Shown: in pieces, positions 3,114 to 25,283 of the stretch
Layout: every line of letters begins with the position of its first letter
How positions within the stretch are numbered: position 1 is the stretch's first letter
Virus record (IMG/VR): IMGVR_UViG_2529292829_000008
Reading direction: 5' to 3' (one strand)
Length of the DNA: 25,283 nucleotides
Source of the DNA: a virus
Lineage: Duplodnaviria; Heunggongvirae; Uroviricota; Caudoviricetes
The notes under the pieces: model-generated
Seen by the model: only the letters and a program-made list of their open reading frames with translations
Told to the model about the DNA's origin: nothing
Databases searched by the model: none
Made by a program: the position numbers and the translations under genes

Positions 3114-3418
3114 GCCCCGGTGAACGCCTGAATGGACTTAATCACATTGCGGAGTTAAGGGCGAAAGTATTTGGCCTGAATATTGAGTCAGAGCTTGAGC
3201 GGTTTATTAAAGATATGCGTGATCCACGGGATATCAATAACGAACAAAATAAACGGGCATTGGCTGCTATATTCTTTATGGCAAAAATTCCAGCTGAACG
3301 TCATAGCATCAGCATTAATGAGCTGACCACTGACGAAAAGCGGGAGTTGATTAAAGCAATGAATCATTTTCGTGCAGTGGTGAGCTTATTTCCCAGACGG
3401 CTAACCATGCCGAATTAA
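3077..3418 (+). CDS. Hypothetical early protein
   Basis: 113-aa ORF with ATG and a GGGGGA SD-like motif; same strand and context as early operon genes. Confidence 0.45.
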   Translation: MAIESAAATVPLSPGERLNGLNHIAELRAKVFGLNIESELERFIKDMRDPRDINNEQNKRALAAIFFMAKIPAERHSISINELTTDEKRELIKAMNHFRAVVSLFPRRLTMPN

Positions 3419-3485
3419 CCAACTAATGAAATTAATGGCGTGAACCCGCCGGGTATCCCTTTATCTAAATTCAGGAGAATTGATT

Positions 3486-3719
3486 ATGCGTAATATTGAA
3501 ACCCTCACGACTAAAACCGGACCGGATGATGCAGGGCTTAATATTTTACTGACAGAGGCTCGTCTGGAAGAACGCCGGGCAAGGGCTGAAGCAATGGCAG
3601 CTCGCCTTGATAGCCTGGCGTGTCATATCACATCCCGCCAGCTAAACCACGTCGAAGCGGCAGAACTGCTGCGTGTGACTGCTGAAGCAATCCAGAACGA
3701 AGCGCAGGAGATCCACTAA
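3486..3719 (+). CDS. Hypothetical early protein
   Basis: ORF 3480..3719; ATG at 3486 with AGGAG 8 nt upstream; 77 aa; stop overlaps the next start (ATGA-type coupling). Confidence 0.45.
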   Translation: MRNIETLTTKTGPDDAGLNILLTEARLEERRARAEAMAARLDSLACHITSRQLNHVEAAELLRVTAEAIQNEAQEIH

Positions 3720-3946
3720 TGGCTGATGCAATGGATCTCGTCCAGCAGCGAGTTGAAGAAGAACGCCAACGTCATATCCGTGCTGCCCGTGCCAAAACGC
3801 CGGGCGTGTCCCGCGTGCTTTGCGTTGAGTGTGAAGCGCCAATTCCGCCAGCACGCCGTCGTGCCATTCCGGGTGTGCAGCTTTGCATTACCTGTCAGGA
3901 AATCGCAGAGCTGAAAGGCAAACATTACAACGGAGGTGCTGTATGA
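3719..3946 (+). CDS. TraR/DksA-family C4 zinc-finger protein
   Basis: 75 aa with C-x2-C-x19-C-x2-C (CVECEAPIPPARRRAIPGVQLCITCQ), the spacing pattern of phage/plasmid TraR-like DksA zinc fingers rather than Ogr (C-x2-C-x22-C-x4-C). Confidence 0.65.
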   Translation: MADAMDLVQQRVEEERQRHIRAARAKTPGVSRVLCVECEAPIPPARRRAIPGVQLCITCQEIAELKGKHYNGGAV

Positions 3947-4800
3947 GCACCATCCTGAAATGGGCGGGAAATAAACCCGCCATAATGTCCGAACTGAAAA
4001 AGCATCTTCCTGCTGGCCCGCGACTGGTTGAACCTTTCGCGGGTTCCTGTGCTGTGATGATGGAGACGGATTACCCCAGCTATCTTGTTGCGGATATTAA
4101 TCCTGATTTAATCAACCTCTATAAAAAGGTTGCTGCTGATTGTGAGGCGTTTATATCTCGTGCCAGAGCTTTATTTGAGGAAGCAAACAGGGAGGTGGCT
4201 TATTACAACATAAGGCAGGAGTTTAATTACTCCACTGAAATTACTGATTTCATGAAAGCGGTATATTTTCTGTATCTCAATCGTCATGGTTACCGTGGGT
4301 TATGTCGCTATAACAAGAGCGGGTATTTCAACATTCCCTACGGTAATTATAAAAATCCGTATTTCCCTGAAAAAGAAATTCGCGCATTTGCAGAGAAAGC
4401 CCAGCGAGCAACGTTTATCTGCGCCAGCTTTGATGAAACGCTGGCGATGCTGCAGGGGGGGGATGTGGTGTATTGCGATCCGCCTTATGACGGTACGTTT
4501 TCCGGTTATCACACTGACGGCTTCACTGAAGATGACCAGTATCACCTGGCATCCGTTCTTGAACATCGGTCATCAGAAGGACATCCCGTCATTGTTTCTA
4601 ACAGTGACACATCCCTGATCCGTTCGCTGTATCGCAATTTTACTCACCACTACATCAAGGCAAAACGCAGCATCGGTGTGGCAGCTGGTGATAGTAAATC
4701 TGCAACAGAAATCATTGCTGTTTCCGGGGCGCGCTGCTGGGTGGGATTTGATCCTTCGCGTGGCGTAGATAGTTCTGCTGTGTACGAGGTGCGTGTATGA
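3943..4800 (+). CDS. dam: DNA adenine methyltransferase, Dam-like (D12 class N6-A MTase)
   Basis: From ATG 3943 (GGAGG SD): KWAGNK near the N-terminus, FAGSCAV (motif I-like), [15 protein letters not shown], and catalytic DPPY ([10 protein letters not shown]); near-colinear with E. coli Dam as I recall it. Confidence 0.88.
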
Positions 4801-7211
4801 GTCATGACGATATGAGCAACTCTAGCGGCTTTAACGAGGCCGCTGCATCATTTTCATGGAACGGCCCGAAAAAGGCCATTAACCCTTATCTGGACCCGGC
4901 GGAAGTTGCGCCGGAGTCTGCACTTTCAAACCTGATCACTCTGTATGTTGCCGATAACGAGCAGGAACAACTGCGCCGCGAGGCACTGAGTGAGCAGGTC
5001 TGGGAGCGTTATTTCTTTAATGAATCCCGTGATCCTGTCCAGCGCGAAATGGAGCAGGATAAGCTCATTAGCCGGGCAAAGCTGGCGCATGAGCAGCAGC
5101 GTTTTAATCCAGACATGGTCATTCTGGCTGACGTCAACGCCCAGCCTTCCCATATCAGCAAGCCGCTGATGCAACGTATTGAATACTTCAGCAGCTTGGG
5201 CAGGCCAAAGGCTTATTCCCGCTATTTGCGTGAGACGATTAAGCCATGTCTGGAACGACTGGAGCATGTACGCGACAGTCAGCTATCCACTTCTTTTCGC
5301 TTTATGGCAAGCCATGAAGGGCTGGACGGCCTGCTGATCCTGCCTGAAATGAGTCAGGATCAGGTAAAACGCCTGTCCACCCTGGTAGCTGCGCATATGA
5401 GCATGTGCCTTGATGCCGCTTGTGGCGATTTATATGCCACCGATGACGTTAAGCCAGAAGAAATCCGCAAGACATGGGAAAAGGTGGCAGCGGAAACCCT
5501 GCGACTGGATGTTATCCCGCCTGCGTTTGAGCAACTCCGCCGGAAAAGAAACCGCCGTAAACCAGTGCCCTATGAACTCATTCCGGGCTCGCTGGCGCGT
5601 ATGCTGTGCGCCGACTGGTGGTATCGGAAATTGTGGAAGATGCGTTGCGAATGGCGGGAAGAGCAGTTGCGTGCTGTCTGCCTGGTCAGCAAAAAAGCAT
5701 CTCCCTATGTCAGCTATGAAGCTGTGATGCATAAACGTGAGCAGCGCCGTAAGTCGATGGAGTTTTTCCGTTCTCATGAACTGGTGAACGAAGACGGAGA
5801 CGCGCTGGATATGGAAGATGTGGTAAACGCCAGCTGCAGCAACCCGGCGCATCGCCGCAATGAGATGATGGCCTGTGTTAAAGGTCTGGAGCTTATCGCG
5901 GAAATGCGCGGTGACTGCGCCGTTTTCTACACTATTACCTGTCCGTCACGTTTCCATTCCACGCTCAATAACGGCAGACCCAACCCGACCTGGAAAAACG
6001 CGACGGTAAGACAAAGCAGCGATTATCTGGTCGGTATGTTTGCTGCATTTCGTAAGGCGATGCACAAAGCCGGGTTGCGCTGGTATGGCGTGCGGGTGGC
6101 TGAGCCGCATCACGACGGCACAGTTCACTGGCACCTGTTGTGTTTCATGCGCAAAAAAGACCGCCGCGCCATTACTGCATTGTTGCGTAAGTTTGCTATC
6201 CGTGAAGACCGCGAGGAGCTGGGCAATAACACGGGGCCGCGCTTTAAGTCTGAGCTGATTAACCCGCGCAAAGGAACGCCGACAAGCTACATAGCGAAAT
6301 ACATCAGTAAGAACATTGACGGGCGTGGTCTGGCTGGCGAGATCAGCAAGGAAACGGGTAAATCTCTTCGTGATAACGCTGAATACGTGAATGCCTGGGC
6401 GTCTTTGCATCGTGTTCAGCAATTCCGCTTCTTTGGTATTCCGGGGCGTCAGGCTTACCGTGAACTGCGATTGCTGGCTGGTCAGGCGGCAAGGCAGCAG
6501 GGTGACAAAAAAGCAGGTGTGCCGGTACTGGATAACCCGCGCCTTGATGCCATTCTGGCTGCTGCTGATGCTGGTTGTTTTGCCACCTATATCATGAAGC
6601 AGGGAGGTGTACTGGTTCCCCGTAAATATCACCTCATCAGAACCGCTTATGAAATTAACGAAGAGCCGACCGCCTATGGCGATCACGGTATTCGTATTTA
6701 TGGCATCTGGTCACCCATTGCAGAGGGCAAGATCTGCACTCATGCAGTGAAGTGGAAAATGGTTCGTAAGGCCGTTGACGTTCAGGAGGCGGCAGCCGAC
6801 CAGGGCGCTTGCGCCCCTTGGACTCGTGGCAATAACTGTCCCCTTGCTGAAAATTTGAACCAACAAGGGAAAGACAAATCAGCTGATGGGGACTCCAGAA
6901 CGGATATTACCCGTATGAATGACAAGGAGTTGCACGATTACCTGCACAGTATGAGCAAAAAAGAGCGCCGGGAACTGGCTGCAAGGTTACGCCAAGTGAA
7001 ACCGAAACGGCGTAAAGACTACAAACAGCGAATTACAGACCATCAGCGACAGCAGCTCGTCTATGAACTGAAGTCCAGGGGATTTGATGGCAGCGAGAAA
7101 GAAGTCGATTTGCTCCTTCGCGGCGGCAGTATTCCGTCAGGAGCAGGCCTGCGTATCTTCTATCGGAACCAGCGTCTGAAGGAAGATGATAAGTGGCGGA
7201 ACCTGTATTAA
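4797..7211 (+). CDS. A: Replication initiation endonuclease (P2 gpA-type rolling-circle initiator)
   Basis: 804 aa; HUH motif ([10 protein letters not shown]) and paired active-site tyrosines ([12 protein letters not shown]), as in P2 gpA; start overlaps the dam stop. Confidence 0.9.
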
Positions 7212-7363: not shown

Positions 7364-7552
7364 ATGCAGGACTATTTTTTGGAGTCTTTGAAGCTTCAGC
7401 GCATTGATTTTTTTCTTAAGCTTGTAGCGGCTAGTGAGTGTAGTGATGAAGAGAAGGGGCTGGCTCTGCAGTGGGTTTCTGAATTGACTGATGAACTTAT
7501 GGCAAAAATCAGAAGCCACGAATACAACCGCTCAATGGATATCATCAGCTGA
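7364..7552 (+). CDS. Small hypothetical protein, first gene of the LexA-boxed operon (possible Tum-like antirepressor component)
   Basis: 62-aa ORF with strong AGGAGGA SD; immediately downstream of the LexA box and upstream of the DinI-like gene. Confidence 0.4.
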   Translation: MQDYFLESLKLQRIDFFLKLVAASECSDEEKGLALQWVSELTDELMAKIRSHEYNRSMDIIS

Positions 7553-7562
7553 GGTGACTTTT

Positions 7563-7796
7563 ATGCGCATTGAAATAATGATCGATAAAGAGCAGAAGAT
7601 TAGCCAGTCTACCCTGGACGCCCTTGAATCCGAGCTTTACCGCAATCTGCGCCCCCTGTATCCCAAAACGGTAATTCGCATTCGCAAAGGTAGTTCTAAC
7701 GGTGTGGAACTAACCGGACTGCAACTGGATGAAGAAAGAAAACAAGTGATGAAAATTATGCAGAAGGTGTGGGAGGACGACAGCTGGCTGCATTAA
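7563..7796 (+). CDS. dinI: DinI-family protein
   Basis: From ATG 7563 (GAGGTGA SD): MRIEIMIDKEQKISQSTLDALESELYRNLRPLYP...VMKIMQKVWEDDSWLH, resembling E. coli DinI (MRIEVTIAK...ILQETWE...) in length and motifs. Confidence 0.7.
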   Translation: MRIEIMIDKEQKISQSTLDALESELYRNLRPLYPKTVIRIRKGSSNGVELTGLQLDEERKQVMKIMQKVWEDDSWLH

Positions 7797-7988
7797 GAAA
7801 CGTTGCCCCCAGGAGGATTCATTCTGATGGGGGCTAGTTTGGGCAATGAGTGAAATAAGGCGTAAGGTGGGCGGTTATTTTGATAAGTGATCGTCCGCTT
7901 TGTGTCAGAAGCAGAAGTGGGAGTGTCTGAGACTCTCTAAAAGTTGATGATTCACTTACAAAACCATTTTCCTGATGAATGCTTACAC

Positions 7989-8799: not shown

Positions 8800-10497
8800 A
8801 TGCATAGAATTGTTAAAGCTCATCTTGATAACTTCGTGAAAAGTCACGGTATTGAAAATCATCAAGAGGACACGCAGTTCGAGCTATTTTGTAATAAAGC
8901 TTTGCTGTCTTCTCGTATAAGTATGGATTATGAAATTGACGATGTAACAACCGGGGCTGGTGATGATGGCATGGATGGTGTTGCCATCATAATTGATGAA
9001 GAATTGTGTATATCTTCTGAAGATGCTACTTCAATATTTTCCTCATTACGTAAAAATCATGATGTTGATATTGTTTTCATTCAATCAAAGCGTAGTGAGT
9101 CTTTTGATTTAGGTGATTTTTTAAAGTTTAAAGCTTCCGTTTTTAGATTTATAGAGGATTCTCCTTACTTATGTGTGGATGAAATTCAAAAAAATGCAAG
9201 GGAAGTTTTTGATGTCATAATAAAAAATGTACCTAAGATAAGAGGTGGGCGACCAACTTTTACTGCTAAATATGTTGCAACTGGTTTATATAAAAAACCT
9301 AAAGAGTTAGAGAATGCTCGGAAGTTATTTGCAAAAGAAATTGACGAGTTGGGGTATTTCTGTAATGTTAGCGTTGAGTTTGTTGATCGTGATGAATTAA
9401 CACGTACTTGGATTGATACTTATTCAGTTGTCAATGCTGAATTGCCATTATTTAGTAATGCACCACTTCCCAAAATTAATGGTATAGAAGAAGCTTATCT
9501 TGCTGTCGTTAAAGCAAAGGATTTTGTTGGTAATTTATTGATGACGGACGAGGGGTCTCTCCGTAATCATGTTTTTGTTGAGAACGTCAGGGCGTTCTTG
9601 GGAATTGATAATCCTGTTAACGCATCGATTGCTGAGACAATTAAAAATAAAGATGCCGCTTCACGATTTCCTGTTTTAAATAATGGAATAACAATTGTTA
9701 GTCCGGATGTAAAACTTCAAGGGAGTATTTTACATCTAGAAAATTTTCAGATAGTTAATGGCTGTCAGACATCAAATGTGCTTTACGAATGCCGCGATTC
9801 CTTAGATGATACGATGATGGTTAACTTGAAAGTCGTAGAGACATTAAACGAAGATGTTTTTTCAGAATTGGTTCGAGCGACTAACAGTCAGACTAAAGTT
9901 GATGAGACTCAGTTCTATTCTCTTCGTCCAATAATAAAGAAAGTAGAAGCGTACTTTGATACTTATGAAGGGCAGGATGGTCGTTTATATTTAGAAAGAC
10001 GTGAAAGACAATTTATCGGTAGAGATATACCTGCAGTTAGAGTATTTTCAGTTCATATGGCAGCTAAATGTGTAGCAGCTATGTTCTTCCGTCGGCCAGA
10101 TCTTTCATATAGATACCCTAAAAAAATGTATGAATTGTTGGCTGAGAAAATATTTTCTAATGATACCAAGGAGATTGTATTTTATTCAGCATGTTTAACA
10201 TTATATAGATTACACTTACTTACTTCTAATGCTGATATTCCACAAAATATCAGGAAGTACAAATGGCATTTAATGGCGGTAGTTGGTGCTTTAATTGCCG
10301 GAAAGGATGTGCCTAATTTTGGATCTAAGAAAATGGATGCGTATTGTAATAAAATCATCACTGAAATGACAAAGCATGGTGATAAAATAAAAGCTACTTT
10401 CCAGAAGGCTGTTGATATTGTTTTGTCAATTGATGATATCACTGATGATAGAATGAAAAGGCAAGCTATTTTAGAGGAAATGCTTGCCAAGATTTAA
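8800..10497 (+). CDS. Low-GC cargo protein, candidate AIPR-like abortive-infection / defence protein
   Basis: 565-aa ORF, much more AT-rich than the backbone; sits between cos and the portal gene; contains ...FPVLNNGITIVSPDV...ENFQIVNGCQTSNVLYE... (DNA about 9751-9774), which I recall as resembling the conserved NGxQT core of the AIPR family. ORF call is solid; family assignment is tentative. Confidence 0.55.
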   Translation: MHRIVKAHLDNFVKSHGIENHQEDTQFELFCNKALLSSRISMDYEIDDVTTGAGDDGMDGVAIIIDEELCISSEDATSIFSSLRKNHDVDIVFIQSKRSESFDLGDFLKFKASVFRFIEDSPYLCVDEIQKNAREVFDVIIKNVPKIRGGRPTFTAKYVATGLYKKPKELENARKLFAKEIDELGYFCNVSVEFVDRDELTRTWIDTYSVVNAELPLFSNAPLPKINGIEEAYLAVVKAKDFVGNLLMTDEGSLRNHVFVENVRAFLGIDNPVNASIAETIKNKDAASRFPVLNNGITIVSPDVKLQGSILHLENFQIVNGCQTSNVLYECRDSLDDTMMVNLKVVETLNEDVFSELVRATNSQTKVDETQFYSLRPIIKKVEAYFDTYEGQDGRLYLERRERQFIGRDIPAVRVFSVHMAAKCVAAMFFRRPDLSYRYPKKMYELLAEKIFSNDTKEIVFYSACLTLYRLHLLTSNADIPQNIRKYKWHLMAVVGALIAGKDVPNFGSKKMDAYCNKIITEMTKHGDKIKATFQKAVDIVLSIDDITDDRMKRQAILEEMLAKI

Positions 10498-19349: not shown

Positions 19350-20795
19350 TTAATGAGTTTTAAGTGCCTCTGTTAAAGATTTTCGATGATGTTCCCAAAA
19401 GGCAAAATCATTTACGTTTGAACTAAACCTCAAATGCTCTTCAGAATATATTGTTTCACGGTGATCGCATCCAAGAAGACATAGAATTAATCTGGTTAGA
19501 TATATTGTTAAGTGTTCACAAGCAACTGCAATGTTTATCAAGTTGTCACTTGGTATAATTACACCATGTATAATTATATTTCTGATTTCAGAAAGTCCTA
19601 GCTTACCAGATTCATTAAATAATGGCCATAAGTCATGAGTATGGATTAAATGTTCTTTAAGAAATTCTTGTGTGGCATCTTTTAATGATATTCTATTCAG
19701 TTCTCCTAGTTTGCTTTTTATTTTTCCTCTAGTTGTTGAATCTTTGATAACGTCCTTGGTGATGACTCTTTCAATTGTTTGTCTTAATGATTTAAACTCG
19801 CTTTCACATAGAATGAAGGTCGTATTGTTTTTTTCTTTATGAGTTAAGATAATAGATTCAAAAGATTGGAAAAGTGAAAGGTATCGAGACTCAAGATATT
19901 GGTTTGATGCATTGAGGACATTAATGGCTAATCGGATGTTCTGTCTGTAATGGGATGACAAATATGTGTGAAACATATTTTCAATATTTTCTTTGGCTTG
20001 TGATGGCATCATTAAGTGTTCTTTTTTGGTATCCTTAATAGGATTTTTTATCCTACAGCGAAAAACTGTATATACACCATCATTAGATTTTAGGTTCAAG
20101 TAACGACAAACTACTTTGTTACTATTGATAAATGATAAGATATCATTAAATGCGTCAATTTTGTCAATGTAGTTGTTTCTTACATCATCAATGGTTAAAT
20201 TAGAATTGTTGGGCTTTATTTTTAGGATTTGTTTTGTGCTGATTTCAAATTTTTCATTGCGTTCTAGTTTTAATTCGATATCTAATTTTATATCTTCGTC
20301 ATTGTTAAGTTTAACAATAATAGACTCTGGCTTTGTAAGAGTGATGTTACCATTCGAAGATAAATTGTACTGAATGTTAGGGGAAAGTAGTTGATGGTCA
20401 CTGTTGTAGAATGTTATTTCCGTATCAGGCGTATTATGTGCTTTATTATTTATAATGACTTCATTGGGAATGATGTTAAATGTATAGTATTGAGTTTTTC
20501 CTGAGTGACGGTCGACGATGTTTTCTATTCTACAATCGATTAGTTTTATCACTGAGCGAATATCACCATTTACATAATGAGTGCAAAATTCAATGTCTAA
20601 ATTATTTTTTCCATAAAGCTTGATGGTTTTTTTACTATAGGTCTTTATCTGAATCCTATCCCAGCTTTCTTTATTGTTGACAGTAACATTGCAAGTCATT
20701 TTGATACTGTTTTCTGTTTTTATATTATCGTCATTAATAGTAATTGGGTTGTGGTCATAAGAAAAAGTAACTTTAATTGATTCATACGTGTTCAC
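19350..20795 (-). CDS. Low-GC cargo protein with C-terminal HEPN-like R-N-x3-H motif (candidate abortive-infection RNase)
   Basis: 481-aa ORF, antisense to the flanking tail genes; GTG start with perfect AAGGAG SD; very AT-rich; N/K/I-rich N-terminal two-thirds; C-terminal region contains SEIRNIIIHG (DNA 19566-19583). ORF call is solid; function is a hypothesis. Confidence 0.6.
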   Translation of the reverse strand: MNTYESIKVTFSYDHNPITINDDNIKTENSIKMTCNVTVNNKESWDRIQIKTYSKKTIKLYGKNNLDIEFCTHYVNGDIRSVIKLIDCRIENIVDRHSGKTQYYTFNIIPNEVIINNKAHNTPDTEITFYNSDHQLLSPNIQYNLSSNGNITLTKPESIIVKLNNDEDIKLDIELKLERNEKFEISTKQILKIKPNNSNLTIDDVRNNYIDKIDAFNDILSFINSNKVVCRYLNLKSNDGVYTVFRCRIKNPIKDTKKEHLMMPSQAKENIENMFHTYLSSHYRQNIRLAINVLNASNQYLESRYLSLFQSFESIILTHKEKNNTTFILCESEFKSLRQTIERVITKDVIKDSTTRGKIKSKLGELNRISLKDATQEFLKEHLIHTHDLWPLFNESGKLGLSEIRNIIIHGVIIPSDNLINIAVACEHLTIYLTRLILCLLGCDHRETIYSEEHLRFSSNVNDFAFWEHHRKSLTEALKTH

Positions 20796-20874: not shown

Positions 20875-21453
20875 ATGAACGCACAACTGACCGAAATCAT
20901 GCGCCTTATCACCAACCTGATCCGCACAGGGGTAGTTACCGAAGTGGACAGGGAAAACTGGCTTTGCCGGGTGAAAACGGGCGAGCTTGAAACCAACTGG
21001 ATTAACTGGCTGACGCTGCGTGCCGGGAATGCCCGCACATGGTGGCGACCATCGGAAGGTGAGCAGGTGGTGCTGCTGAGTCTGGGCGGAAATCTGGAAA
21101 CCGCCTTTGCGCTGCCCGCTGTCTATTCGAATCAGTTCGCACCACCGTCGACGTCGGCGGACGCCTGCGTGACAGAACATCCTGACGGTGGCTGGTTTGA
21201 ATACGAACCCGCCACCGGGCGCTGGTATGTCAGGGGCATCAAATCAATGGTCATTGAGGCCGCTGACAACATCACCATGAAAACCAGTGAGTTTGTACTG
21301 GAGGCTGACCGCACGTGCATTAACAGCGAAGTGGTGATCAATGGTGGCGTTACCCAGGGCGGCGGAGCGATGAGTTCTAACGGGATTGTGGTTGATGCGC
21401 ATCAGCATACTGGCGTCCTGAAAGGCGGCGATACAACCGGAGGCCCGGTATGA
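20875..21453 (+). CDS. V: Baseplate spike / assembly protein V (P2 gpV-like)
   Basis: 192 aa; MNAQLTEIMRLITNLIRTGVVTEVD...WLTLRAGNARTWWRPSEGEQVVLLSLGG...SSNGIVVDAHQHTG... is colinear with P2 gpV. Confidence 0.9.
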   Translation: MNAQLTEIMRLITNLIRTGVVTEVDRENWLCRVKTGELETNWINWLTLRAGNARTWWRPSEGEQVVLLSLGGNLETAFALPAVYSNQFAPPSTSADACVTEHPDGGWFEYEPATGRWYVRGIKSMVIEAADNITMKTSEFVLEADRTCINSEVVINGGVTQGGGAMSSNGIVVDAHQHTGVLKGGDTTGGPV

Positions 21454-21809
21454 CGCTTTATTGCGGGATGAACAATACCAGCGGCAAAGTCATTACTGAT
21501 ATTGACCATCTGCGCCAGTCGGTGCGGGACATTCTGCTGACGCCGCAGGGTAGCCGCATTGCTCGCCGTGAATATGGTTCCCTGCTGTCGGCACTGATAG
21601 ACCAGCCACAAAATCCGGCGTTACGCCTGCAGGTCATGTCGGCAGTGTATGTGGCGCTGAGTCGCTGGGAGCCACGGCTGACGCTGGATTCCATCACCAT
21701 TAACAGCAATTTTGACGGTTCAATGGTGGTGGGACTGACTGGGCGGCGTAATAACGGTGTGCCTGTTTCCCTTTCCGTATCAACAGGAGCAGAGAATGGC
21801 AGTGATTGA
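21450..21809 (+). CDS. W: Baseplate wedge protein W (gp25/GPW family)
   Basis: 119 aa; ...ILLTPQGSRIARREYGSLLSALIDQPQNPALRLQVMSAVYVALSRWEPRLTL... matches P2 gpW; ATGA overlap with V. Confidence 0.9.
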   Translation: MTLYCGMNNTSGKVITDIDHLRQSVRDILLTPQGSRIARREYGSLLSALIDQPQNPALRLQVMSAVYVALSRWEPRLTLDSITINSNFDGSMVVGLTGRRNNGVPVSLSVSTGAENGSD

Positions 21810-22704
21810 CCTTTCGCAGTTGCCTGCGCCGCAGATTGTCGATGTGCCGGACTTTGAGACGTTGCTTGCCGAACGCAAGGCCGAATTTGTTGCGCTTCAT
21901 CCGAAAGATGAGCAGGAAGCAGTGATCCGCACGCTGGAACTGGAATCTGAACCAGTCACCAAATTGTTGCAGGAGAACGCTTACCGTGAGTTGCTTCTGC
22001 GCCAGCGCATTAACGAAGCCGCGCAGGCGGTGATGGTGGCTTACGCGATGGGCGGCGATCTTGACCAGCTCGCTGCCAACTACAACGTGAAACGCCTGAC
22101 GGTGACGCCTGCTGATAATGACGCTGTGCCGCCCGTTGCGGCTGTGATGGAAAGCGATGAAGCGTTACGCCTGCGTGTGCCTGCAGCCTTTGAAGGGCTT
22201 TCGGTTGCGGGGCCAACTGCCGCTTATGAATTTCATGCCCGAAGCGCCGACGGTCGGGTGGCGGATGCCAGTGCAACCAGCCCGGCACCTGCAGAGGTGG
22301 TGCTGACTGTCCTTAGCCGCGAAGGCGACGGAACTGCAGAAAAAGACTTGCTGGATGTGGTGGAGAACGCCCTGAACAGTGAGAACGTCCGCCCGGTGGC
22401 TGACCGTCTGACGGTTCGCAGCGCAGAAATCATCCCGTACCGAGTGGAAGCCACCATTTTTCTTTATCCGGGACCGGAAGCAGAGCCGGTAATGGCAGCG
22501 GCAAAAGCCAGCCTGCAGAAGTACATCGCCAGTCAGACGCGTCTTGGTCGGGATATTCGCCGTAGCGCCATCTTTGCCGCCCTGCATGTTGAGGGTGTGC
22601 AGCGTGTGGAGCTGGCTTCCCCTCTGGCGGATGTGGTCCTGAACAAAACACAGGCGGCATCATGTACGCAGTGGAGCGTAACCAACGGAGGAACGGATGA
22701 ATAG
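21796..22704 (+). CDS. J: Baseplate protein J (P2 gpJ-like)
   Basis: ORF 21757..22704; ATG at 21796 gives MAVIDLSQLPAPQIVDVPDFETLLAERKA..., matching the P2 gpJ N-terminus (MPIIDLNQLPAP...); ...RLGRDIRRSAIFAALHVEGVQRVELASPLADVVLN... is also conserved. Confidence 0.9.
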   Translation: MAVIDLSQLPAPQIVDVPDFETLLAERKAEFVALHPKDEQEAVIRTLELESEPVTKLLQENAYRELLLRQRINEAAQAVMVAYAMGGDLDQLAANYNVKRLTVTPADNDAVPPVAAVMESDEALRLRVPAAFEGLSVAGPTAAYEFHARSADGRVADASATSPAPAEVVLTVLSREGDGTAEKDLLDVVENALNSENVRPVADRLTVRSAEIIPYRVEATIFLYPGPEAEPVMAAAKASLQKYIASQTRLGRDIRRSAIFAALHVEGVQRVELASPLADVVLNKTQAASCTQWSVTNGGTDE

Positions 22705-23302
22705 TCTGCTGCCACCGGGTTCAACGCCACTGGAGCGCCGACTGGCGCAAGCGTGCAGCGGGATTTCTGATTTGCAGGTGCCGCTGCGTGACCTGTGGGA
22801 TCCGGCGACCTGTCCGGTCAGTTTCCTGCCTTATCTCGCCTGGGCGTTCTCTGTGGATCGCTGGGACGAGGGCTGGACAGAAAGCGTCAAGCGCCAGGTG
22901 GTGAAGGATGCTTTTTATATTCATCAGCATAAAGGAACCACCAGTGCCGTGCGGCGGGTGGTGGAGCCGTTCGGCTTCCTGATACGCATTATTGAGTGGT
23001 GGCAGACTGGAGAAACACCGGGCACGTTTCGCCTGGACATCGGCGTGCAGGACCAGGGCATCACTGAAGATACCTATCTGGAACTTGAGCGGCTGATAAG
23101 CGATGCCAAACCATGTAGCCGTCACATGATCGGCATGTCCATCAATCTGCAAACTAGTGGCCCGCACTGGGTAGGGGTCGCCAGCTATCTTGGTGAAGAA
23201 ATCACGATCTATCCGTATATCAACGAAACAATTATTTCTGGCGGCACCGCGCATGAAGGCGGGGCGGTCCATGTTATTGACACAATGAGAGTGAATCCAT
23301 GA
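22697..23302 (+). CDS. I: Baseplate / tail protein I (P2 gpI-like)
   Basis: 201 aa; ...LWDPATCPVSFLPYLAWAFSVDRWDEGW...HQHKGTTSAVRRVVEPFGFLIRIIEWW...GTFRLDIGV... matches P2 gpI. Confidence 0.9.
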   Translation: MNSLLPPGSTPLERRLAQACSGISDLQVPLRDLWDPATCPVSFLPYLAWAFSVDRWDEGWTESVKRQVVKDAFYIHQHKGTTSAVRRVVEPFGFLIRIIEWWQTGETPGTFRLDIGVQDQGITEDTYLELERLISDAKPCSRHMIGMSINLQTSGPHWVGVASYLGEEITIYPYINETIISGGTAHEGGAVHVIDTMRVNP

Positions 23303-24642
23303 GCACAAAATTTTATACCCTGCTGACGGATATTGGCGCGGCGAAACTTGCCAGCGCCGCCGCGCTCGGTGTGCCGCTAAAAATTACCCATATGGCGGTG
23401 GGCGATGGCGGTGGAGTATTGCCAACGCCGGACGCAAAGCAGACGGCACTGGTAAATGAGAAACGCCGGGCTGCGCTGAATATGCTCTATATCGACCCGC
23501 AAAACAGCAGCCAGATTATTGCTGAACAGGTGATCCCTGAAAACGAGGGCGGTTGGTGGATACGTGAAGTGGGCCTGTTTGATGAATCCGGGGCATTGAT
23601 TGCCGTGGGCAACTGCCCGGAAAGCTATAAGCCGCAACTGGCTGAAGGCAGCGGGCGCACCCAGACCGTGCGCATGGTGCTGATTACCAGCAGCACGGAC
23701 AATATCACCCTGAAAATTGACCCTGCCGTCGTGCTGGCAACCCGCAAGTATGTGGATGACAAGGTACTGGAGCTGAAGGTGTTCGTGGATGATAAGATGG
23801 CAAAACATCTTGCCGCACCGGACCCGCATTCACAGTATGCACCCAAAGAAAGCCCGACATTGACCGGAACACCCAAAGCGCCAACGCCAGCGGAGGGGAA
23901 TAACACCACGCAGATTGCGACCACCGCGTTTGTTCAGGCGGCACTGATGGCCCTTATTAATGGTGCGCCAGCCACACTGGATACGCTGAAAGAAATTGCC
24001 GCTGCCATTAATAATGACCCGAAATTCAGTACCACCATTAACAATGCGCTGGCACTGAAAGCGCCGCTGTCGAGTCCGGCACTCACCGGAACGCCAACAG
24101 CTCCCACGGCGGCGCAGTCGGTCAACAATACACAGATTGCCACTACCGCTTTTGTGAAATCGGCAATTGCAGCAATGGTGGGTTCTGCACCTGCGGCACT
24201 GGATACGCTGAACGAACTGGCAGCGGCGCTGGGGAATGATCCGAACTTTGCCACGACAATGCTTAATGCGCTGGCAGGTAAACAACCGCTGGACAATACG
24301 CTTACCAATTTGAGTGGAAAGGATGTAGCTGGTCTTCTCACATACCTTGGTTTTGGAGAAGGTGCTAACTGGGTTATGTTACCTGGAGGAATGATAATTC
24401 AGCGTGTTTATCTTGGATTTCCTGTTGGCACCAATGCAAGACACATAACTTTCCCCCGGTCGTTTACAACAACGAACTATTCCATCTCAATTAACTGGAA
24501 TGATATCGGTACTGTAACAACTGAAACACTATCGCCAGCAAATGTGGCGGTTGTTCATCAAACAAAATCATTAACAGGGGCCAGCATCTGGCAGGCAGGT
24601 CCCGGGGGATTTAATGTGGACATTATAGCGGTGGGGTATTGA
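23299..24642 (+). CDS. H: Tail fibre protein H (conserved N-terminal part, tandem internal repeats, AT-rich variable C-terminal domain)
   Basis: 447 aa; N-terminus [24 protein letters not shown]... typical of P2-like fibre proteins; two ~73-aa repeats each containing [11 protein letters not shown]; composition shifts to AT-rich after about 24300. Confidence 0.85.
23851..24290 (+). repeat. Tandem duplication (two units of about 220 bp / 73 aa) inside the tail fibre gene
   Basis: Unit 1 [73 protein letters not shown]; unit 2 [74 protein letters not shown]. Confidence 0.6.
24335..24360. other. Candidate Hin/Gin/Cin-family DNA-invertase crossover site inside the tail fibre gene
   Basis: TTCTCACATACCTTGGTTTTGGAGAA; by my recollection about 18 of 26 positions match Mu gix (TTCCTGTAAACCGAGGTTTTGGATAA), including the GGTTTTGGA core; sits at the constant/variable boundary of H where composition changes. 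Confidence 0.45.
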
Positions 24643-24643
24643 T

Positions 24644-25072
24644 ATGTACGTATGGAGCGCTAAAGCAAATGGCTTTTTCCCCATATCGGAGAAAGAAAAA
24701 TTTGAGGCATCAGGTCTGTGGCCTGATGATGGTGTAATAGTCAGTGAGGAAGAACATAAAAAGTTATTTATGGATATTCCACCAGGAAAACAGATTGGAA
24801 CACTGAATGGAAAACCAGCACTGATAGATATTCCTCAGCCGACCAAAAAGGAATTAATAGCTATTGCTGAAGTTAAAAAATCCCAATTACGGGAAAAAGC
24901 TGACAGTGAAATATCCTGGCGTCAGGATGCTGTTGATGCTGATATCGCAACTGATGAAGAAACTTCAACTCTCACCGAATGGAAGAAATACCGTGTGCTG
25001 CTGATGCGTGTTGATACTTCAACAGCACCCGATATTGAATGGCCTACGCCTCCGGCAGTTCAGGCCAGATGA
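24644..25072 (+). CDS. G: Tail fibre assembly (chaperone) protein G
   Basis: 142 aa directly after H; C-terminus ...[27 protein letters not shown] is the conserved tail-fibre-assembly ending. Confidence 0.8.
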
Positions 25073-25283
25073 CATCCGGCGCGGTGCTGGTATCTGTTGC
25101 CGTCACCGCGTCAATGTAATCCAGCACGGCGTTAAGTCGGGTTGTTTCTGCCTGAGTCAGTTTCCGTCCGGCCTGTAATTTCAGCTGAATCAGACTAATG
25201 GAAGCCATTGCTGCATCAATCAGTGACTGGCGCTGTGCTTCTGCTGCTTCTACTGCGGCGTTATGCTGTGCCTCAGTATCTGT
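25044..25283 (-). CDS. Second tail fibre assembly protein, convergent, 3' end only (5' end beyond window)
   Basis: Manual minus-strand translation, open to the window edge: [79 protein letters not shown], stop at 25044-25046; same C-terminal family signature as G and overlaps the G 3' end by about 29 bp. Absent from the ORF track because no start codon lies inside the window. Confidence 0.7.

Follow-up and report, generated by a model that had tools for sequence, protein, structure and literature searches.

The right-hand end of the window, by which we mean the whole 25,283-nt stretch of DNA analyzed here, very probably (we would put it at about 0.9) belongs to a P2-like (Peduoviridae) E. coli prophage and forms the left half of an invertible tail-fibre segment of the Gin/Pin family. 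A first-pass annotation of the same stretch had proposed such a segment as a host-range switch, and the proposal is supported by a crossover site inside the tail-fibre gene H, by the full cassette in relatives, by the opposite orientation of the segment in another E. coli genome, and by the presence of both junctions in one scaffold.

Results

Window and features

The gene order of the window, as read from the map of open reading frames (ORFs), is that of a P2-type prophage. The window comes from assembly GCA_000355575.2, where it makes up the final 25,283 nt of draft contig AQDU01000088.1. This contig stops one base past it, and an exact-protein look-up of H matched only this source contig and one other scaffold. 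The features of the locus and its surroundings are as follows.

Left end of the window: integrase (ORF map)
Minus strand: portal and terminase genes (ORF map)
Capsid and lysis genes, then tail genes, the last being V-W-J-I-H-G, 20875-25072 (ORF map)
23299-24642, plus strand: tail-fibre gene H in its present configuration, 447 aa (ORF; Pfam Phage_tail_fib)
23299-24348, plus strand: constant part of H, residues 1-350, outside the invertible segment (phage homology; forward match in the E. coli genome L010)
24335-24360, inside H: left 26-bp crossover site, TTCTCACATACCTTGGTTTTGGAGAA, which divides as TTCTCACATACC-TT-GGTTTTGGAGAA
24347-24348: central dinucleotide TT of the left site
24349-24642, plus strand: variable C-terminal exon of H, residues 351-447, gp53-like tip, of low GC content
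24349-25283: visible part of the invertible segment, 935 bp (comparison with L010)
24644-25072, plus strand: tail-fibre assembly chaperone G, 142 aa (Pfam Caudo_TAP, 1e-33)
25283-25044, minus strand: 3' part of the alternative assembly gene, its last 79 codons and stop, cut by the contig end (Caudo_TAP, 1.4e-20)

A crossover site inside H

The protein encoded by H begins with a P2-type domain (Pfam Phage_tail_fib, 5e-65) and over residues 361-447 gives a sub-threshold match to Gp53-like_C. As far as 24361-24362, its constant part agrees with many P2-like phages at 95-96% identity, and BLAST homology to over 40 sequenced phages of this type, from Escherichia and Klebsiella, stops at query base 1063-1064, which is this same position in the window and corresponds to the last bases of the 26-bp site. 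GC content is 0.51-0.60 over 23300-24250, only 0.40-0.46 between about 24300 and 24950, and 0.52-0.55 past 25000.

The sites used by the Gin, Pin, Cin and Hin invertases are 26 bp long and imperfectly palindromic, with a core of the form ...AACC-NN-GGTT.... In the window site, the two 12-nt half-sites agree at 9 of 12 positions. We drew up an IUPAC consensus from Mu gix and the two e14 P-segment sites alone, and it fits the window site with three mismatches; this is its sole match on either strand of the 25.3-kb window, and none of 100 shuffles matched. In a comparison that covered gix and the e14 sites, the window site agreed with the left site of e14 at 21 of 26 positions and with Mu gix at 17-18 of 26. 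The first-pass annotation had pointed to a turn of H to AT-rich sequence after about 24300 and to a sequence resembling Gin-type crossover sites exactly there, and both observations hold.

A further signal that it had named, a second assembly gene running against G and overlapping its 3' end, is also present. The minus-strand ORF at 25283-25044 matches the C-terminal half of Caudo_TAP, and its TAG stop (25046-25044) lies within the last 29 nt of G, so that Caudo_TAP chaperones occupy both strands in convergent orientation with a 29-nt overlap. The DNA of this fragment is 100% identical to a 197-aa gene found on scaffold L003 (7831-8424) and in L010 (4170-4763), and the DNA of G is 100% identical to an inverted copy in L010, where it is annotated WP_000289820.1. 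Each fibre tip is followed by its own chaperone, either G or the 197-aa TfaE-like protein.

Both orientations of the segment

In L010, the sequence of window positions 24347-25283 lies on the opposite strand, 100% identical over 937 nt, and the constant part of H matches the window in the forward direction at 95.5%. The breakpoint is the central TT of the 26-bp site, and a T/G difference at site position 19 has moved with the segment, giving reciprocal hybrid sites. Measured between the site centres (3713/3714 and 5459/5460), the L010 segment is about 1746 bp long, and the window holds its left 54%. The variable exon of H, the first gene part within the segment, adjoins the recombinase, on the opposite strand, in L010, in the isolate genome L013 and in 82 E. 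coli genomes.

Because the central TT takes codon positions 2 and 3 on both arms of the segment, residues 1-350 of H fuse in frame to either tip. The inverted form of H is predicted to be an open reading frame of 501 aa, replacing the 447 aa seen here, with a new junction that reads GLLTYLGLGEGAPTIGVPFFWPS; when L010 is translated, this fused frame of 501 aa is intact.

The annotation of the flipped fibre differs from its translation. The RefSeq pipeline splits H of L010 (2665-4170) into two 'incomplete' pseudogene pieces where translation gives one intact ORF, and an identical two-piece annotation stands at 2665-4170 of L011, which is known from annotation alone. These pseudogene calls seem to be an artefact of annotating a fibre gene fused by inversion.

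Over 3,884 + 753 nt, scaffold L003 matches the window at 100% identity, and it contains both the junction of the constant part of H with the variable exon and the junction of the recombinase flank with that same exon, the latter spanning the hybrid site TTTTCTTAAACGTTGGTTTTGGAGAA. One inner end is here joined to two outer flanks, and the data from this one isolate therefore hold either two states or two copies of the locus; it is conceivable that two copies of the prophage, and not a mixed population, gave the pair of junctions. In a set of 5,426 complete E. coli genomes, the junction of the constant part with the variable exon occurs in 4, the predicted junction of the constant part with the alternative tip in 32, and the junction of the recombinase with the variable exon in 82. 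The first-pass annotation had named the lack of a partner site or invertase downstream, together with only one orientation in read data, as what would tell against it; both orientations exist, as the inverted copy in L010, the two junctions of L003 and these genome counts attest.

We also considered two clonal isolates, CUVET23-RF4 (L012) and CUVET23-CCU12 (L013), which are 99.98% identical outside the segment. Between the crossover sites (L012, about 3235-5102) the RF4 consensus is garbled, with an identity of 83-94% and some 80-90 gap openings. Both crossover sites have the same inner half, which looks like a long-read consensus assembled from reads of both orientations. The garbled segment fits reads of mixed orientation, but it is not a clean sign of inversion, and we set this pair aside as proof of a recent event.

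Partner site and invertase in relatives

Past position 25283, the locus was followed in relatives. The best complete-genome relative, the E. coli prophage L001, is 97.3% identical over 1,985 nt and continues past H in the order tfa, tfaE (minus strand), a tail-fibre C-terminus (minus strand), a recombinase (plus strand) and the sheath gene; its tfaE is full-length, convergent and 603 nt long, and its 'recombinase family protein' gene is 567 nt long on the plus strand. The top inverted repeat of L001 pairs the site in H with TTTTCATAAACGTTGGTTTGGGAGAA, 1,770 nt apart; TTTTCATAAACGTTGGTTTGGGAGAA is the right-hand site of both L001 and L006, and the e14 P segment has this very sequence as its own right-hand site. 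Inverted partner sites with a central TT/AA are found in L001 (8837-8862), L002, L005-L007 and L010. The layout of L001 recurs in the sequenced phages 500465-1, Cartapus and KP12, where the recombinase gene is annotated as a DNA invertase. The partner site, the alternative minus-strand C-terminus and the hin/gin/pin-like serine recombinase had all been expected beyond the window; the contig ends one base on, and the closest relatives have all three. Some relatives show decay of the silent cassette, among them L002, whose annotation marks the alternative fibre fragment as partial.

Multi-inversion systems have at least three crossover sites and more than two arrangements, and shufflons use the tyrosine recombinase Rci. 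Scans of L001, L002 and L005-L007 (at up to 7 mismatches) and of L010 (at up to 6) gave two crossover sites each and no third. With two sites and a recombinase of the serine type, a shufflon or other multi-site arrangement (p15B Min, the three-repeat locus of enteropathogenic E. coli, Rci) is ruled out.

The invertase family to which the recombinase belongs is marked by a Resolvase catalytic domain joined to a C-terminal helix-turn-helix (HTH), with the catalytic serine near residue 9-10. The recombinase of L003 (2705-3271; the alternative tip is at 7381-7833) is 188 aa long and matches Pfam Resolvase (2e-53) and HTH_7 (6e-15), and the catalytic-serine motif in relatives reads YVRVSTNDQ. Among the P2-like relatives examined the recombinase is 98-99% identical, it matches the sequence of the Gin crystal structure 3uj3 (4e-92), and it is 85% identical to PinE of prophage e14, 78.6% to Cin of P1 and 73% to Gin of phage Mu; the family occurs in 115 phage records (E <= 1e-40). 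We refine the first-pass annotation in one respect: judged by sequence, the site and the recombinase are nearest to the Pin system of e14 and not to Mu Gin, because the site reaches 21 of 26 positions and the recombinase 85% against e14, versus 17-18 of 26 and 73% against Gin.

Genes for such invertases have an enhancer in their 5' part, made up of two Fis sites with a spacing of about 47-48 bp. A strict consensus scan of the recombinase genes found one Fis match, at nt 71-85 of the gene and common to gin, pinE and the P2-like genes, and did not find a second Fis site at the expected spacing. The Q-x-x-R-L patch, which is conserved in Fis/enhancer-dependent invertases (PMC3798978), is kept as QIGRL in the recombinase of the relatives.

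The P2-like phages of Klebsiella pneumoniae (Kp48xx, KP12) are close to the E. coli prophages both in the constant part of H (94.6-95% identical) and in the invertase (98%), and diverge from them only past the crossover site. Because the difference is confined to sequence past that site, it suggests that cassettes may be exchanged across genera at the tail-fibre locus.

The contig end

The end of contig AQDU01000088.1 (window 25283; L004 7986) falls within the TfaE-like gene, inside the invertible segment, and the stretch at the contig end is 93.7% identical to e14 tfaP/tfaE. The break probably arose from repeat copies of tfa genes or from mixed orientation in the reads.

Other genes of the prophage

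A 565-aa cargo gene (8800-10497, plus strand) lies between the replication genes and the portal gene Q. Because its product matches Pfam AIPR (1.5e-43) and PADLOC AbiU (4e-112), we read it as probably an abortive-infection defence gene in a P2 hotspot. A 481-aa ORF (19350-20795, minus strand) separates tail gene S from tail gene V; its one Pfam match, to DUF7239, is sub-threshold, PADLOC gave no match for it, and the same spot in L001 is filled by other cargo, a DUF4435 gene and an AAA ATPase. This ORF is a cargo gene and possibly a candidate for a role in defence. The early region encodes a DinI-like protein (7491-7796, plus strand; Pfam 1.4e-22).

Discussion

We propose that a 188-aa serine DNA invertase, encoded just past the segment and between it and the tail-sheath gene, would pair the site at 24335-24360 with an inverted partner about 1.75 kb downstream. 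Following the general Gin/Pin-type reaction (PMC3798978), two invertase dimers would bind the two sites and come together in a synapsis on supercoiled DNA aided by Fis and an enhancer, after which a 2-bp staggered cut at TT/AA in both sites, a 180-degree rotation and religation would turn the segment around. In the orientation of the window, the fibre would consist of H residues 1-350 and the 97-residue gp53-like tip, followed by the matching chaperone G; in the inverted orientation, the same N-terminus would bear a tip of about 150 residues, making 501 aa, and the 197-aa TfaE-like chaperone would come next. Receptor specificity would in this way be switched reversibly in part of the lysogen population. 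By comparison with the relatives, we infer that the strain from which the window comes also has the invertase and the partner site and that inversion may be active there; dependence on Fis and an enhancer, and a change of host range between the two tips, are likewise expected of a system of this family.

Not only the phage but also the lysogen may benefit from the switch. Because the relatives and e14 have one and the same right-hand site, resident Pin-type recombinases (PinE, PinQ and PinR) could flip the segment in trans, and one of the two fibre or fragment products could act as a receptor-blocking defence, a role described for the e14 StfE2 chimera against other phages (PMC12529663). We consider this extension unlikely; if it were true, the skew of 82 genomes with the silent arrangement to 4 with the expressed one would reflect host selection rather than sampling.

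Of the readings that compete with an active switch, the one that survives best is that the invertase or the partner site has been lost or inactivated in the window's strain, leaving the fibre fixed as we see it. The source contig ends at the window, the silent fibre fragment of L002 is partly decayed, and the orientation of the window occurs in only 4 of the 5,426 genomes against 82 with the other, all of which would suit a frozen locus. The crossover site of the window is nevertheless intact, all P2-like relatives examined keep the recombinase at 98-99% identity, and the identical prophage on L003 has an intact 188-aa recombinase together with both junctions, and we judge a frozen remnant to be quite unlikely.

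A different account would make the stretch encoding ...YLGFGEG... a linker at which homologous recombination exchanges tip modules, with no site-specific inversion at all. Such a mosaic joint would agree with the way in which homology to many phages stops exactly at the site and with the finding of several different tips on one constant part across genomes, but it cannot account for a 100% identical inverted cassette that breaks at the central dinucleotide, for the reciprocal hybrid sites, or for a Gin/Pin-family recombinase adjoining the locus in every relative. We regard it as very improbable as the whole explanation, and module exchange and inversion are not exclusive: the two can coexist. 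Chance resemblance of a short sequence to hix/gix sites, which has that shortness and nothing else in its favour, is scarcely credible, and we rule it out on the shuffle test, with its one match in the window to a consensus drawn from independent sites, and on the coincidence of the site with both the homology boundary and the breakpoint in L010.

An invertible segment, the reading that we prefer, has little import beyond correct annotation, as P2-like phages with this locus have already been sequenced and their invertase annotated. It does bear on how such loci are handled. Draft contigs tend to break, and long-read consensus sequences to degrade, inside invertible segments, and breakage of this kind probably explains where the window ends. 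Automatic annotation mislabels the fused fibre, turning a 501-aa H into two pseudogene pieces (L010, L011), and host-range prediction for the prophage should count two fibre tips rather than one.

Comparison with known systems

The closest known systems are the P segment of e14 in E. coli K-12 (PinE; stfP/tfaP and tfaE/stfE) and the fibre loci of P2-like phages. With e14 the locus shares a gene order of fibre gene with internal site, tfa, convergent tfaE, alternative fibre C-terminus and pin. The right-hand site is identical in L001 and L006, the left one agrees at 21 of 26 positions in the window, the recombinase is 85% identical, and the overlapping tfa 3' ends are 93.7% identical in DNA. 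In length, too, the segments are alike, at about 1.75-1.80 kb here and 1,797 bp in e14 (PMC12529663). The two differ in their setting, since e14 is a defective lambdoid element whereas the locus described here belongs to an apparently complete P2-type tail cluster with a Phage_tail_fib N-terminus on H, and their fibre tips are different modules.

In the P2-like loci of Escherichia phages 500465-1 and Cartapus and of Klebsiella phage KP12, the constant part of H is 95-96% identical up to the site. Between their fibre cassettes and the sheath gene there is an invertase, 98-99% identical to that of the window's relatives, which already bears the annotation 'DNA invertase' or 'Mu Gin homolog'. These loci differ from ours only in the cassette pair, which here combines a gp53-like tip and 142-aa chaperone with a tip of about 150 residues and 197-aa chaperone. 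Inversion at the tail-fibre locus of P2-like prophages has been described in enteropathogenic E. coli (EPEC) by whole-genome sequencing (PMC4272514). One locus among the EPEC E2348/69 prophages has three inverted repeats and four variants, whereas the relatives of the window have two sites. A survey of P2-like hotspots also mentions an invertase with inverted neighbouring genes (bioRxiv 10.1101/2024.10.15.618418).

The G segment of Mu (Gin, gix; S/U and S'/U') is alike in its plan: the constant N-terminus of the fibre is encoded outside the segment, the segment itself contains two fibre C-termini, each paired with a chaperone and the two pairs convergent, and the invertase gene, whose product is 73% identical, lies just outside the right-hand site. 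It differs in its size, about 3 kb in Mu against a smaller locus here, in its site, to which ours has only 17-18 of 26 positions in common with gix, and in the non-overlapping arrangement of U and U'. The C segment of P1 (Cin, cix), compared by its invertase alone, has an enzyme of the same family at 78.6% identity. Because inversion in P2-like prophages has been published and annotated, we count the switch as already known: the locus is an ordinary host-range switch of a familiar kind.
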